64,000 bases of DNA, from contig JABCTZ010000046.1 in the NCBI GenBank assembly GCA_018238155.1, positions 256,001 to 320,000 on the forward strand, written 5' to 3'. Positions 53,746 to 63,877 of the stretch are shown here, piece by piece (the first letter of the stretch is position 1; every line of letters begins with the position of its first letter). The stretch is from Candidatus Heimdallarchaeota archaeon (GTDB lineage Archaea > Asgardarchaeota > Heimdallarchaeia > JABLTI01). The notes beneath the pieces are model-generated. The model did not search any database, was not told the DNA's origin, and saw nothing but the letters and a program-made list of their open reading frames with translations. The position numbers and the translations under genes were made by a program.

Positions 53746-54582
53746 ATGCCCCCAAAGAAAAAAAATCCTGAGAAAAAGAAGAAATCCATCCCAAAAGAGA
53801 AGATTATCAAAATGGTGAAAGATCAAGAATACGTTGATTTAGGAGAACCTTTTGGTGAGAGTGCGAGAAGATATCTTGCTTTTCAGTTAACAAAATTGAT
53901 AGATAAAAAGGAAATAACAGGAACGGTTATTACACCAGAAGGAGTTTTCATTTCTCTTTCAGCTTCCGAAGTGAAAGACATTGTTCGTTTAATTAAAGCC
54001 AAAGGCATTTCTAATCTAGAAAAACTTGCAGAAGAGAACAAGTGGAATTCAAAAGTAGTAACATTGATTGCAAAGTCACGAATCAACCTTATTCAAAGAA
54101 AAGACAACAAAGTAATCACAAGAGATTCTGCAAAAGATATTCTCTATCAAAGTGTAATTCAAGGTGTTGATATAGATATATACGAATTAGCAGAAGAATT
54201 ACAACTTAAGAAATCTATTACAAGGGAATTACTTCAATCATTAATTGATGATGGCAAGATCGAAGGTGTTTATGTAAAATCTTCCCATAAATTTCTACCA
54301 ATGGAAATGCTTGAAGAATCTATTAGAGAACTTATAGACGATTTGGAAATGCAAAAAGTTTCATCTGTAACTTTTACCGCAATAGCAGAAAATTACAGTA
54401 TTTCTGATGAACAAGTATACAATATTTTATTGAAGCTTCACAATGTGGGAGATATTGACGTTCAACTAAACATGGGTCAAAAAATTTGTTTAATCAAAGA
54501 AAATATCGAAACTGAGAAAATTATTGAAAGAATACCTGAAGAAGAGAAAAAATTAGACATTGAAGATTTAACTCAGAAATAG
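53746..54582 (+). CDS. Tandem winged-helix protein, DDRGK1/UFL1 (PCI-like WH)-like
   Basis: About four WH repeats (LIDKKEITG.., KGISNLEKLAEE, IDIYELAEELQL...LIDDGKIEG, VTFTAIAENYSIS); Lys-rich N-terminus. Confidence 0.7.
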   Translation: MPPKKKNPEKKKKSIPKEKIIKMVKDQEYVDLGEPFGESARRYLAFQLTKLIDKKEITGTVITPEGVFISLSASEVKDIVRLIKAKGISNLEKLAEENKWNSKVVTLIAKSRINLIQRKDNKVITRDSAKDILYQSVIQGVDIDIYELAEELQLKKSITRELLQSLIDDGKIEGVYVKSSHKFLPMEMLEESIRELIDDLEMQKVSSVTFTAIAENYSISDEQVYNILLKLHNVGDIDVQLNMGQKICLIKENIETEKIIERIPEEEKKLDIEDLTQK

Positions 54583-55513: not shown

Positions 55514-56179
55514 TTGGCAAGTGAAAAAATAATCGTTAGATTGAAGGACCTTATCGGTAAAACTGATTCACAAATTTACTTGATTATTGGTCCCCCTGGT
55601 TCAGGGAAGGAAGGATTTGCATTACAGTATTTAATTGATGGATTTGCTGAGAAGAATAATGGTATTTTTCTCACAACTGATAGCTTTCCAAAAGAGATAA
55701 CTGACAAGATGAAACGATTAGGTGTTGATCCTGCTACTTTTATCACTGCAAAACAATTACAATTCATTGATGTCTTCTCTTATCGTACTGGCGAAAGCAT
55801 AAAAGACAATGGCTTAACTGTAAATAGCATTCGAGAATTGACCAGTATTAGTGTAATCATCAAGAAGTTAATTGATTCTACTGAAAAACTTAGACTTGTG
55901 ATGAATACAATTTCCACAATATCTATTTATAATTCAGAAATAGCAATACTTGATTTCATTCAAGCACAAGTCGCAAGATTAAAGCAACACAACCATTGTG
56001 GAATAATCGTTGCTCAACAAGGTATGATGAATGAAAAAGTCATTCAAGGAATAAAAGCAATTGTTGATGGCGTTATTGAATTCCAATCAATTACTGACGA
56101 GAAAGGTGTATCTCAAAAAAGATTGAGAGTAGAATTTGCACCTAAAATTAAGAAGACTGGTTGGATCAATCTATACTGA
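55514..56179 (+). CDS. KaiC/RAD55-like ATPase
   Basis: Walker A GPPGSGKE, FIDVFS, Walker-B-like LVMNTIS, IVDGVIE; 24 bp after the NTase. Confidence 0.88.
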   Translation: MASEKIIVRLKDLIGKTDSQIYLIIGPPGSGKEGFALQYLIDGFAEKNNGIFLTTDSFPKEITDKMKRLGVDPATFITAKQLQFIDVFSYRTGESIKDNGLTVNSIRELTSISVIIKKLIDSTEKLRLVMNTISTISIYNSEIAILDFIQAQVARLKQHNHCGIIVAQQGMMNEKVIQGIKAIVDGVIEFQSITDEKGVSQKRLRVEFAPKIKKTGWINLY

Positions 56180-56511
56180 TAAACAACGCGTATTCCTAAT
56201 TTCGTTTATTTATTTTTTTTACTTATTCTTAAATAAAGAAAATATACTGTACATATTCTCAAATATTCGAACGTCTATTTTAATGGAGAAAAAATCACAG
56301 GCGCTTATTATCGTTGATACTGTCTTCTTTAGTCTTGACCTCATCATAGAGAATTATGTTTTTTACCATATCTATCATTAGAAAATAATAAAAGCTGTAA
56401 TCACCTAATATTTTGAAATCTCAAGGATTTTTTTTGAATCACATTTCATTGTATACAAACCTACTTATAGATTTAAATAGACCCTTGTAAAAACGTATCA
56501 AGTGGTTAACC

Positions 56512-57213
56512 ATGACAAATTGGTGGGAATATGTTCTAGCTTTATCCCCTTCTGTAGTAATTCTTGTTGCGTATTTACTTAATTACGTTCTGGGTAAAAA
56601 GAAGAACAAGCATTTTGTATTAGAAATGTTATCGAAAATAGCTGTTCCGTTAAATGATTATTGTGACTCATTTGAGAAAGTCACACAAGAAAAAGAGAGA
56701 TACCAATTAGTTTGTAAACCAAGTCAAGATTCTCCTTTGAAAGCAATGGTTGTTTTAGGAATCCCTATTGGTAGACCATTTCTCCTTCCTTTTATCTGGG
56801 ACAAAATTAGAAAACACAGAGACAAATATACTCTCTCAGCGAACTTGAAGAAAAGACCACCCTTTTCACTTGAAATTGTTTCGAGGAAACGAAAGAAGGT
56901 TCTAAAAGGTGATCAAGATTACTTCATGTCACTTAAAGAAGTAAATACAACAGGATTCCTCAATGAATTTTTCATCATTAAAACAAACAATGTTCGCTCT
57001 GCAACAAAACTGTTGTCAAATGAAAGTTTACTTAGACTTTTAGCAAAAACTCGTTCAGAAACTCTTTGGCTTTCATTAAGGTACGAGGTTAAAGAAGTTG
57101 GTATGCAATTTGAATCCATCTTTGAATATGAAGAAGAACAAATAGAGAACACTGTTGAATTGTTTTTAGAAGTAATTGATGCTATTCCATATCCGCGTAA
57201 AGGTAAATACTGA
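56512..57213 (+). CDS. N-anchored membrane protein, CCDC47/DUF1682 (PAT complex)-like
   Basis: Single N-terminal TM ending in LVAYLLNYVLGKKKN, followed by a soluble alpha/beta domain. Confidence 0.7.
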   Translation: MTNWWEYVLALSPSVVILVAYLLNYVLGKKKNKHFVLEMLSKIAVPLNDYCDSFEKVTQEKERYQLVCKPSQDSPLKAMVVLGIPIGRPFLLPFIWDKIRKHRDKYTLSANLKKRPPFSLEIVSRKRKKVLKGDQDYFMSLKEVNTTGFLNEFFIIKTNNVRSATKLLSNESLLRLLAKTRSETLWLSLRYEVKEVGMQFESIFEYEEEQIENTVELFLEVIDAIPYPRKGKY

Positions 57214-60568: not shown

Positions 60569-63500
60569 GTGGTGAGAGATTTGGTCGAAGATCAAAATGT
60601 TAGGAGATTTATGGGAACTCAATTAGTGGAAGAAGAAATTCAAGCTTTAAAACAACTTGAGAATGAAATGAGCAATCCAGTTTTTTTGAGCATCAATATT
60701 GGAAATAAACTAGATGTTGTTATCAAAAAGGATATTAAAAGCAAAATACCTTTTTTGAAAGTTATCACCTTTAAAGTGGAAGGTAATCATGTAACAGATC
60801 TTTATATGAAAAATATTTGGGCGGATAAGATACCCAAATGTATTCTTAAGTTTAAAGAAATCAAATCTATAAGTTTGATACATTTTTCAAAATTAAAATC
60901 ATTTCCTCAAGTGATTTGTTATTTAAAAAAATTAGAAATTCTTTATTTAGAAAAGTGCTCGATAAACGATATCCCCGAAGAAATTGGTGAGCTATCAAAG
61001 TTAAAGAAAATAGTTTTTAAAAATTGCTACAAATTTAGTGAAATTCCTACCAGTTTTGCAAATTTAAAAGAGCTTTATGAATTTAAATCTTTAAACACGC
61101 TTTCAAATAATGAGCAATTTGAACAAATTTTGAAATGTAAAAATATCTCAGAATTATCAATTATTGGCAGCAAAATAGAATCAATTCCAAAATCTCTTTT
61201 CAATCTTCTAAAATTAAGATATCTCAATTTATCTTACAGTAAGATTTCAACATTACCAAGTGCTATCCGAAGGTTGACAAATTTAGAGGAATTAATTCTA
61301 AATAATACCAATTTGAAGAATATACCAGTTGGGATAGGAAATTGCACCAATTTAAGATTATTAAAACTAGATTATAATAAAATAATAAGTGTTCCTGAGA
61401 GTTTATTAAAATTGAAGAATCTTGAGGAAACTCCCACAATAAAAAAATTAAAACAACAGATAACAGGCGAAAAGAAACTAGAAACAAAGCAAGAAGAAAA
61501 AAAATCAGAAGAGAAATCTGAGAAAAGTACAGATACAAAAGTTGGTCTATACATCAAGAAATTAGTTTACAAAGATGAAATACTTGTTTTAGAAGAACTT
61601 GACAAAATGTGTGGAGATAAAATTAGTTTTTTCAAAATTGAAAATTATCACGTTACAATGTTAAGTCTGATGAGGAAAAATTACAACGCTACTCCTCAAT
61701 CATCTCTACCTGAATCAATAGGAAAGTTAGTGGAATTAAAATACTTGAATTTTAGTAAAACTACATTCTCAACCTTGCCAGACAGTATTGGAAATCTTAA
61801 GAAATTAGAGGAATTCAAATTTTCAGAGTCACACATTGAAGAACTCCCAGAGGAAATTTGTCTTTGTAAAGAAATAATGATAATGGAAGCAGAAGAAGGA
61901 AAACTAACTAAATTACCTCAGAATATTGGCAATTTAACAAAATTAACTAGCTTGATTTTGAGTAAAAATGAAATAAACGCTTTACCTGAGAGTATAGGGA
62001 AATTAAAGAACCTTGAAACTTTTCGAATAGATAAAAATCGACTCACAAACCTTCCAAAATCCTTTGCCAATCTTATTCGATTAAAGGAATGCAACTTGGA
62101 AGGAAATACAATTGAAAATATACCTGGTGGTTTTGAACATTTTTCGCAATTGGAGTCACTTCTCCTTATAGGAAATAACATAAAATTCATTTCAAGAAAA
62201 ATAGAGGATTTTGAACAGCTAAAGAAGATTGAAATTGATTATTTGCAATTGAGAGATATAACCGCCTTATTGAGAAAGGATGCTGATGCACAACAAATAT
62301 TGACCAATATTGATCAAATTGCACCAATTTATAAAGATCTTCTGTTAATAGACAAATTGCACCAATCTAAAACTTTGGTTAAAGCAAATTTTAGAAAAAT
62401 CGATATATTAGATAATCAACAATTATTTGAACCTCTTCTCAGAAAAGTAGAAGAAATTGCAAACGATGTGGAAGAATTCAGGAGAATTGATATTTCAGAT
62501 ATCAAGGAAGAGGATAAGGTATTAATTTCTTCATTAATCAAAACTATCACAGAAACTAATCCCAATTTTGTTAGAACTTTAGATGAGAATTTAGTATATA
62601 GTATATCCAAAATAGCCTTTAAAGTTAACTTGAAGAAAGAAGCTGAAGCTCTGAGTAGAGCTGTTTTGCAGAAGAACAACCAAGATGTAAATCATTTAAA
62701 ATTAATTGGTAATTTATTAAATGAGAAAAAACGCTATATTGATGAAGAAAAAGTATATTTAACAGCTCTTCACCATCACACCAATGATTTTAGAATTATT
62801 ACAAATTTAGGAAGTAATTTATTCGCACAAAATAGTAATAATGCAATCGAATCAGAAAAATTGTTTCGAAAAGCTTTAGAGATTAATCCAAAGTATAACA
62901 CTGCTTGGATTAAATTGAGTTCAATTTTGAGAACAAAAAAACAGTTGGAAGAAGCAGAAAAAGCTTGTTTACAAGCAATTCAAAATGATCAAGAGGATTA
63001 TTTTGCATGGAATGAATTGGGAAGAGTATACAAAACCTATTATGATCAATACAGGAAAAAAAGAAATGATGAAACTAGCAAAGAAAAAGTAAAGCAGTAT
63101 CAAGAGAAATTTATGGATGCATTTTGGAAATCCTTGAAAATCAAACCAGATAACCCTCAAGCATTAGCGAATATTGCTCACATACATAGTTCAAGTAATG
63201 AATTTGCCAAAGCAATTAAACTTTATAAAAAGATATTGAAAGTTCAACCTCAAAATTATGGAGCATTGATGAGCCTTTCTATTATCTATATTCAAAAGAA
63301 TGAATTCGATAATGCAGCAACAATGTGTGATGAAGCATTAAAAATTAGACCTGATACAAAGAAAAATCCAATCGTACATCTACTCTTTAGGCAAGGGTAT
63401 GTATTTGAGCCCTTAAAAGAAAATGAGCTAGGTGAATATCACAATATTAAGTTAGCTAAAAATGAAATTCAAAAACTGACTGATATAGAAGAAGTGATAG

Positions 63501-63877
63501 GAGAACCACTTGTTAGAAAAATTTGTGATAGATGGGATTTTACTCGAGTAAAAAAACACTTCTTTGAACGAATAATGGGATCACCCCAAAATGCATCTCA
63601 AGGAAAATTTGTTGAAGGACCAAATTTTGATCTAGAAGATTTTCGTATTAGCTCACTTGATTTGGGTTATTGTAATTTGAGTGATCTACCAGCAAGTATC
63701 GGAAATCTCTATAATTTGAAAAGAATAAATTTAGAGCAGAATAAACTAAAGACCTTACCTAAATCATTTTTCCATATGGAAAAATTGCAAGTTATTCGTT
63801 TAACAAACAATCCTGATTTTATTTTTGATAAGAAAACTAAAAAATTGGAACAAAAGGGATGTGAAATAATAAAATGA
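60569..63877 (+). CDS. Large LRR-LRR-TPR-LRR protein
   Basis: Three LRR blocks (LPESIGxLxxL), each preceded by a similar N-cap, with a central TPR array (A...F.KAL...P). Confidence 0.9.
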   Translation: MVRDLVEDQNVRRFMGTQLVEEEIQALKQLENEMSNPVFLSINIGNKLDVVIKKDIKSKIPFLKVITFKVEGNHVTDLYMKNIWADKIPKCILKFKEIKSISLIHFSKLKSFPQVICYLKKLEILYLEKCSINDIPEEIGELSKLKKIVFKNCYKFSEIPTSFANLKELYEFKSLNTLSNNEQFEQILKCKNISELSIIGSKIESIPKSLFNLLKLRYLNLSYSKISTLPSAIRRLTNLEELILNNTNLKNIPVGIGNCTNLRLLKLDYNKIISVPESLLKLKNLEETPTIKKLKQQITGEKKLETKQEEKKSEEKSEKSTDTKVGLYIKKLVYKDEILVLEELDKMCGDKISFFKIENYHVTMLSLMRKNYNATPQSSLPESIGKLVELKYLNFSKTTFSTLPDSIGNLKKLEEFKFSESHIEELPEEICLCKEIMIMEAEEGKLTKLPQNIGNLTKLTSLILSKNEINALPESIGKLKNLETFRIDKNRLTNLPKSFANLIRLKECNLEGNTIENIPGGFEHFSQLESLLLIGNNIKFISRKIEDFEQLKKIEIDYLQLRDITALLRKDADAQQILTNIDQIAPIYKDLLLIDKLHQSKTLVKANFRKIDILDNQQLFEPLLRKVEEIANDVEEFRRIDISDIKEEDKVLISSLIKTITETNPNFVRTLDENLVYSISKIAFKVNLKKEAEALSRAVLQKNNQDVNHLKLIGNLLNEKKRYIDEEKVYLTALHHHTNDFRIITNLGSNLFAQNSNNAIESEKLFRKALEINPKYNTAWIKLSSILRTKKQLEEAEKACLQAIQNDQEDYFAWNELGRVYKTYYDQYRKKRNDETSKEKVKQYQEKFMDAFWKSLKIKPDNPQALANIAHIHSSSNEFAKAIKLYKKILKVQPQNYGALMSLSIIYIQKNEFDNAATMCDEALKIRPDTKKNPIVHLLFRQGYVFEPLKENELGEYHNIKLAKNEIQKLTDIEEVIGEPLVRKICDRWDFTRVKKHFFERIMGSPQNASQGKFVEGPNFDLEDFRISSLDLGYCNLSDLPASIGNLYNLKRINLEQNKLKTLPKSFFHMEKLQVIRLTNNPDFIFDKKTKKLEQKGCEIIK

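Follow-up and report, generated by a model that had tools for sequence, protein, structure and literature searches.

In eukaryotes, CCDC47 (also named calumin; Pfam family PF07946, formerly DUF1682) is a subunit of the PAT complex and of the multipass and SND3 translocons (7TM3 chain 4, 6W6L chain 7 and 9I78 chain 4 in the PDB). Its transmembrane domain (TMD) and globular domain form one fold unit (PMC12572126). CCDC47 docks on the ribosome and helps to build multi-pass membrane proteins: Asterix associates with the TMD, and contacts with the ribosome are made by the globular domain together with the coiled coil. The latch helices and the coiled coil sit between the exit tunnel and Sec61, where they brace Sec61 in its closed state and enter the tunnel mouth (PMC7505659; PMC12572126). 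CCDC47 and the PAT complex have been described as confined to eukaryotes (PMC7505659; PMC12572126) and, in the latter study, as 'strictly conserved throughout eukaryotes'. Asgard archaea possess the eukaryote-type translocon accessories TRAP and OST, and their published translocon inventory comprises Sec61, OST and TRAP subunits and no CCDC47 (PMC11417166). Here, we describe a gene from a Candidatus Heimdallarchaeota archaeon that encodes P0001 (hereafter mini-CCDC47), very probably a true archaeal homologue of the TMD-plus-globular core of eukaryotic CCDC47. This gene lies in a 64-kb stretch of contig JABCTZ010000046.1 (positions 256,001 to 320,000, forward strand), hereafter the window, in which all coordinates are counted from the first nucleotide.

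Our literature search retrieved no paper linking CCDC47 or the 'multipass translocon' with Asgards, or TtfA (the mycobacterial trehalose monomycolate transport factor A, considered below) with CCDC47. GenBank automatic annotation already names some Heimdall relatives of P0001 'DUF1682 domain-containing protein', and precomputed Pfam tags exist. We regard mini-CCDC47 as a truncated archaeal variant of a known family, of interest for eukaryogenesis, whose function we infer only.

The mini-CCDC47 gene and its product

The window is AT-rich (about 32% G+C) and belongs to contig C7 of a 4.08 Mb genome that is 90.7% complete. The closest protein relatives of P0001 carry the NCBI names Candidatus Heimdallarchaeota or Asgard group. 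The list of open reading frames (ORFs) and the translation agree on an ATG-initiated ORF of 233 amino acids (aa), the features of which are as follows.

56512..57213, + strand: coding sequence of mini-CCDC47 (P0001), stop codon included; ORF, match to PF07946 (E=1.7e-6), orthologues of 66-88% identity, single copy
56524..56592, + strand: N-terminal transmembrane (TM) helix, about residues 5-27; seen in the sequence, part of helix 4-47 of the AlphaFold2 model, superposes on the CCDC47 TMD
56593..56652, + strand: juxtamembrane motif G28-x3-N32-K33 and cytosolic continuation of the TM helix, residues 28-47; conserved, aligns to GKNKN of CCDC47
56653..57189, + strand: cytoplasmic alpha/beta globular domain with a CCDC47-type fold, about residues 48-226

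The AlphaFold2 model, computed without templates and from archaeal sequences only (predicted local distance difference test score, pLDDT, 92.9; predicted template-modelling score, pTM, 0.87), consists of one long helix (residues 4-47, the TMD and a cytosolic stalk) followed by an alpha/beta domain that extends to residue 223. ORF, translation and model thus agree with an earlier note on this DNA, which had read a single N-terminal TM helix followed by a soluble domain. An N-out/C-in topology is predicted from the positive-inside rule, because only about four residues precede the hydrophobic helix and the basic GKKKNK segment follows it. The soluble part is basic overall (pI 9.5) and its last helix is acidic, the last 40 residues comprising 4 K/R versus 10 D/E; the protein ends with PYPRKGKY after this acidic helix.

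As compared to eukaryotic CCDC47, which is about 483 aa long and resides in the endoplasmic reticulum (ER), mini-CCDC47 is a 233-aa protein of the archaeal plasma membrane, according to its predicted location. It differs from CCDC47 at both ends. No signal peptide or acidic luminal (extracytoplasmic) domain occurs in P0001 or in any of its orthologues, and P0001 has no C-terminal coiled coil or latch helices, its chain stopping directly after the globular domain, about 10 residues past the final helix of that domain. The absence of the luminal acidic region and of the long coiled coil, as stated in the earlier note, therefore holds.

Homology to the core of CCDC47

PF07946 matched P0001 with an E-value of 1.7e-6 (27.9 bits), all 22 of its orthologues and, independently, 16 out of 32 diverse relatives (best E 3.3e-8), so that the profile bears out the DUF1682 assignment of the earlier note. 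Distant members of the archaeal family are collinear with PF07946 over most of the length of the profile (P0035, profile positions 7-227; P0033, 8-248; P0036, 8-271; P0037, 6-201). When a broad profile of the archaeal family was searched against the PDB sequences, CCDC47 ranked first and collinear, at a non-significant E of 0.07. The alignment of the hidden Markov models (HMM) paired positions 12-191 of the archaeal profile with residues 140-334 of CCDC47 in the chains of 7TM3 and 6W6L. The human segments that the earlier note had quoted (LLAYIMNYIIGKNKN, NQENEHIYNLWC, MLIQLRFLKRQDLL..RPVSDQVQI and GLPDSLAILSE) are present in these chains. The HMM alignment, made independently, pairs each of them with the archaeal segment that the note had chosen and keeps their order. 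The nearly invariant G28, R88 and D104 of the broad family correspond to identical residues of mammalian CCDC47 (in GKNKN, LKRQDLL and VSDQV, respectively). N32 and K33 are invariant among the orthologues. Of all the links to eukaryotic CCDC47, the juxtamembrane G-x3-N-K segment (YIIGKNKN in CCDC47) is conserved best. A scan of P0001 against NCBIfam gave no match.

The structural comparison led to the same family. In the Foldseek search against the PDB, the top three matches were all CCDC47 chains, namely 7tm3_4 (rabbit multipass translocon; E=5.9e-11, TMq 0.75), 6w6l_7 (human TMCO1 translocon) and 9i78_4 (fungal SND3 translocon), rather than chains of an unrelated fold, the outcome that the earlier note had named as refuting its assignment. 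The molecule names of the 7TM3 and 6W6L chains were confirmed as CCDC47, and 9I78 is known to contain ctCCDC47 (PMC12572126). The TM helix superposes on the CCDC47 TMD (residue 7 of the model on residue 135 of the chain). Similarly, the shape search of the ESM Atlas retrieved eukaryotic PF07946 clusters at a template-modelling (TM) score of 0.77. Mini-CCDC47 thus combines a Pfam score for the family, a single TMD with a cytosolic helix and the G-x3-N(K) motif, and an alpha/beta domain of CCDC47 fold. Together, the structural matches (PDB and Atlas) and the profile matches argue for homology to CCDC47.

Distribution, conservation and tailed relatives

The family profile detected the gene in 117 out of 400 genomes of the phylum. 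It is near-universal in the class of the window (families f1-f7; 72 out of 82 genomes) and patchy outside it, being found in all genomes of f13 (5/5), f14 (6/6) and f24 (7/7) and in none of the 135 genomes of f20. Beyond the class, the named members are from Jordarchaeaceae and Hodarchaeales, along with one Bathyarchaeia protein that NCBI terms DUF3137. Homologue searches with the family profiles retrieved only proteins of Heimdall, Bathyarchaeia, one protein labelled 'Crenarchaeota' and unnamed proteins. When 1.8 billion representatives were searched exhaustively with a profile, 35 proteins of 43-302 aa (200-302 aa, bar a few fragments) were returned and none of the eukaryote-like length of about 480 aa, hence no sequence bridge to eukaryotic CCDC47.

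The gene is single copy in the genome of the window; f6 genomes often carry two or three paralogues. Across f1, the family of the window, mini-CCDC47 is 71-87% identical, versus 64-87% for the neighbouring KaiC-like ATPase and 54-87% for the YjeF NAD(P)HX repair enzyme. Conservation of this kind shows a gene under strong purifying selection.

The orthologues from Heimdallarchaeaceae (about 300 aa, such as P0032) belong to the same clade and have the same TM helix and globular domain as P0001, which lacks the basic helix that they carry in addition. This K/E/R-rich extension of about 70 aa is predicted to form one 48-residue C-terminal helix (residues 254-301), and these tailed proteins are collinear with residues 135-476 of CCDC47. 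The cytoplasmic part is basic in all family members (pI 9.0-10.3); f1 is unusual in its acidic final helix (FEYEEEQIENTVELF), which stands in place of the basic tail. In the maximum-likelihood tree, the clade of the window grouped with the tailed forms of f3 and f5 (support 95/93) at the end of a long branch of 1.49 substitutions per site, and yet it is highly conserved internally, as seen across loci L003-L016. Because the window clade is nested with these tailed forms, its tail-less state looks like a secondary loss. The long f1 branch and the replacement of the basic tail by an acidic helix suggest that the binding partner changed in this lineage.

Related families with a similar fold

A fold similar to that of mini-CCDC47 also occurs in TtfA (6T84; PF28092), which by sequence as well as by structure is clearly more remote from it than CCDC47 is. 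TtfA, an accessory of MmpL3 (a 12-TM transporter; PMC6593404), is restricted to mycolate producers, and there is no MmpL3 or mycolate context around P0001. DUF3137 (PF11335) has a similar fold as well, and the Bathyarchaeial protein P0037 matches both PF07946 and PF11335; PF11335 did not match P0001 at E<=10 and gave only noise in its genome. In addition, unnamed clusters of 226-252 aa in the Atlas are as close in shape to mini-CCDC47 as eukaryotic CCDC47 is (TM score 0.75-0.82). They are labelled mostly as bacterial, and their membership of the bacteria is possible, in so far as the Atlas taxon labels of a few members indicate it. What the members of this superfamily have in common may be, by analogy, a cytoplasmic domain that is tethered to the membrane and found alongside large multi-pass membrane proteins.

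Closer to P0001 are short mini-CCDC47 forms encoded next to CstA and ArsA(Get3)-type ATPases. Profile comparison places them in the same family (E down to 1e-17 with the orthologue profile), and they match P0001 in size and architecture. In the tree, they form a separate group with Jordarchaeial and Bathyarchaeial sequences (support 94/83). The f31 loci L035 (genome G392) and L040 (G370) comprise two ArsA/Get3-type ATPases, small ORFs, CstA, an unknown protein of about 220 aa and mini-CCDC47. The f9 locus L036 (G003) comprises a small ORF, CstA, the same unknown protein and mini-CCDC47; the ATPases are not within the fetched stretch, which reaches the end of the contig. Get3-type ATPases themselves act in the targeting of membrane proteins, so that a role in biogenesis would also fit the CstA module, which may, by analogy, itself concern membrane-protein insertion. 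We rejected this module as a reading of the window's genome, which encodes no CstA (the controls were positive) and whose mini-CCDC47 falls in another tree group.

Translocon partners

The genome of the window encodes SecY and one insertase of the EMC3/TMCO1 family (DUF106-type, 83.6 bits), as in ordinary archaea. In this genome, 90.7% complete, Asterix (PF03669) gave no match better than E 0.45, a search that a small 3-TM protein could escape, the profile being trained on eukaryotes, and only sub-threshold matches, most of them broken by stop codons, in 83 genomes of the class. TMEM147 (PF09767) gave no match in a search where the positive controls were also silent. Neighbourhoods were compared at 21 loci from 13 families, and no gene-context link to SecY, SRP (signal recognition particle) or ribosomal genes was found among them. 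A co-fold of mini-CCDC47 with SecY, using the genome's own SecY alignment and the broad family alignment, scored 0.00, a value that is not evidence either way. The earlier note had proposed a minimal prokaryotic PAT-like subunit: the homology to the CCDC47 core stands, and the PAT-like part of the claim found neither a detectable Asterix or TMEM147 nor translocon synteny.

Proposed function and alternatives

We propose that mini-CCDC47 serves as a membrane-proximal CCDC47-core scaffold on which multi-pass membrane proteins are made or assembled. This is the best overall explanation, and we judge its chances to be evenly poised. The N-terminal helix would anchor the protein in the cytoplasmic membrane (N-out/C-in), with its basic alpha/beta domain facing the cytoplasm. 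By analogy with the CCDC47 TMD, which holds Asterix, the TM helix would hold a membrane partner, and the basic domain would dock onto an anionic surface, for which the ribosome near SecYEG is the obvious candidate. Most likely, mini-CCDC47 would be a constitutive scaffold of this kind. Since the basic C-terminal helix has been lost in the lineage of the window, the protein cannot brace SecY or reach the exit tunnel in the manner of CCDC47. The tail-less form can conserve the function of the core domain only, and the tailed Heimdallarchaeaceae form would be the better candidate for a Sec61-type bracing or exit-tunnel function. A part in membrane-protein biogenesis or assembly, however exerted, could equally well prove right or wrong, and docking on the ribosome or SecYEG is doubtful. 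The data show the homology, the architecture, the distribution and strong purifying selection; how the protein lies in the membrane, what it binds and whether the ribosome or SecY is involved are what we infer.

A bolder version of this proposal holds that Heimdall-class Asgards have a ribosome-docked scaffold of CCDC47 type at SecYEG, of which the tailed form latches SecY and the form of the window is derived, and that CCDC47, TtfA and the CstA-linked forms make up one ancient superfamily of factors that are anchored in the membrane and assemble large multi-pass membrane proteins. If true, the core of the PAT complex and multipass translocon would predate eukaryotes and have been inherited from the archaeal host. 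We consider this rather unlikely. In any case, a conserved, near-universal homologue in the Heimdall class, found in nature with and without the tail, opens the origin of the multipass translocon to experiment. Does the core domain bind ribosomes, does the basic helix touch SecY, and what takes the place of Asterix? The protein also provides a small soluble domain for structural studies, and it would link a human disease gene family with bacterial transporter accessories.

Several observations weigh against the homology. The score of P0001 barely exceeds the gathering threshold of PF07946 (27.7 bits). Most of it comes from residues 15-62 (residues 1-62 alone scored 19.2 bits), the soluble part alone (residues 30-233, 40-233 or 63-233) matched no Pfam family, and the identity to CCDC47 is only 10-17%. 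Neither phmmer with P0001 nor the narrow orthologue profile retrieved CCDC47 from the PDB sequences. The single-protein match to PF07946, taken alone, thus appears fragile, and the resemblance might be convergent, or a chance profile match caused by a hydrophobic helix and a lysine-rich stretch. In view of the CCDC47 chains at the top of the structural search and of the matches to the orthologues and diverse relatives, we consider this highly improbable. The width of the superfamily (TtfA, DUF3137 and the unnamed clusters) weakens the inference from fold to function. Mini-CCDC47 could be an accessory or stabilising subunit dedicated to one client, either a transporter or a membrane complex, as TtfA is for MmpL3 and as the CstA-linked forms may be, making no contact with the ribosome or SecY, the translocon role of CCDC47 then having been added to the same scaffold later, in eukaryotes. 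This we hold to be possible, if somewhat less than probable. The lack of CstA in the window's genome and the phylogenetic distance of its clade from the CstA-linked group stand against it, as does the CCDC47-like basic helix borne by sister lineages. Moreover, the gene is near-universal, single copy and highly conserved across the class despite changing neighbours, which fits better with a general factor.

The neighbours themselves suggest another alternative, in which mini-CCDC47 would be the membrane anchor or receptor of the KaiC-like P-loop ATPase encoded upstream, as part of a module for signalling or remodelling that has nothing to do with protein insertion. The two genes adjoin wherever an f1 locus covers the flank, and they do so again in f5, rearranged and in a different orientation. 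The adjacency is absent from f3, f6 and all other lineages, the neighbour families found there are unrelated to the KaiC-like ATPase (hhalign probability <1%), and f1 and f5 are close kin, so that it may be residual synteny. Furthermore, the length of the spacers (115-333 nt) and the presence of a TATA-like box point to independent transcription. We therefore regard this module as quite improbable and retain the scaffold in membrane-protein biogenesis as the preferred proposal.

Genomic neighbourhood and minor observations

In the window, mini-CCDC47 is flanked by the KaiC-like ATPase, a nucleotidyltransferase and YjeF. The gene order is fixed in f1 (KaiC-like ATPase, mini-CCDC47, then the convergent YjeF). 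The elements upstream of the gene are as follows.

55514..56179, + strand: KaiC-like P-loop ATPase (PF06745, 3e-23), upstream neighbour in every f1 locus that includes the flank
56472..56479, + strand: TATA-like box TTTAAATA, about 36 nt ahead of the start codon, read from the sequence

The spacer between the KaiC-like gene and mini-CCDC47 is 333 nt long in the window, and the nearest relative conserves 89% of the 44 nt that directly precede the ATG. The TATA-like TTTAAATA within it suggests that mini-CCDC47 may have its own promoter. A look-up of public sequencing runs, RNA included, listed none. This AT-rich spacer also overlaps an 81-aa hydrophobic ORF (56136-56381, + strand), which we considered as an Asterix-like partner and rejected, as it is not conserved and is interrupted by stops in the orthologous loci; it is most likely not a gene. 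No neighbour was universal across the 21 loci. A cryptic common neighbour across lineages was likewise rejected, the neighbour clusters being mutually unrelated (hhalign probability <1%).

Ras-family small GTPases (PF00071, 2e-31) are encoded directly beside mini-CCDC47 in two deeply separated families. In f3 (Heimdallarchaeaceae; loci L023, L024 and L025) the GTPase gene is upstream and co-directional, and in f6 (L027, L029, L037 and L038) two GTPase genes are downstream and convergent. Asgards carry many Ras-family GTPases, and this adjacency may be due to chance. In the same four f6 loci, a cluster with a JAB/MPN protease, recognised by Pfam, occurs upstream of a mini-CCDC47 paralogue; by eye, it also contains an E2-like protein (HPN motif), a ThiF/E1-like protein and a small ubiquitin-like ORF.

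Three genes upstream of mini-CCDC47 in the window, on the same strand, the ORF 53746-54582(+) encodes a protein of 278 aa whose N-terminus is rich in lysine and which contains winged-helix-like repeats. Its Pfam matches are all sub-threshold: PCI (6.7e-6), E3_UFM1_ligase/UFL1 (1.4e-4) and DDRGK (2.8e-3). Eukaryotic UFL1 and DDRGK1 act on ER-bound ribosomes; the similarity seen here may be no more than a promiscuous winged-helix likeness. Finally, the ORF 60569-63877(+) encodes a protein of 1102 aa with long arrays of leucine-rich repeats followed by TPR repeats, and large repeat proteins of this sort are typical of Asgard genomes.
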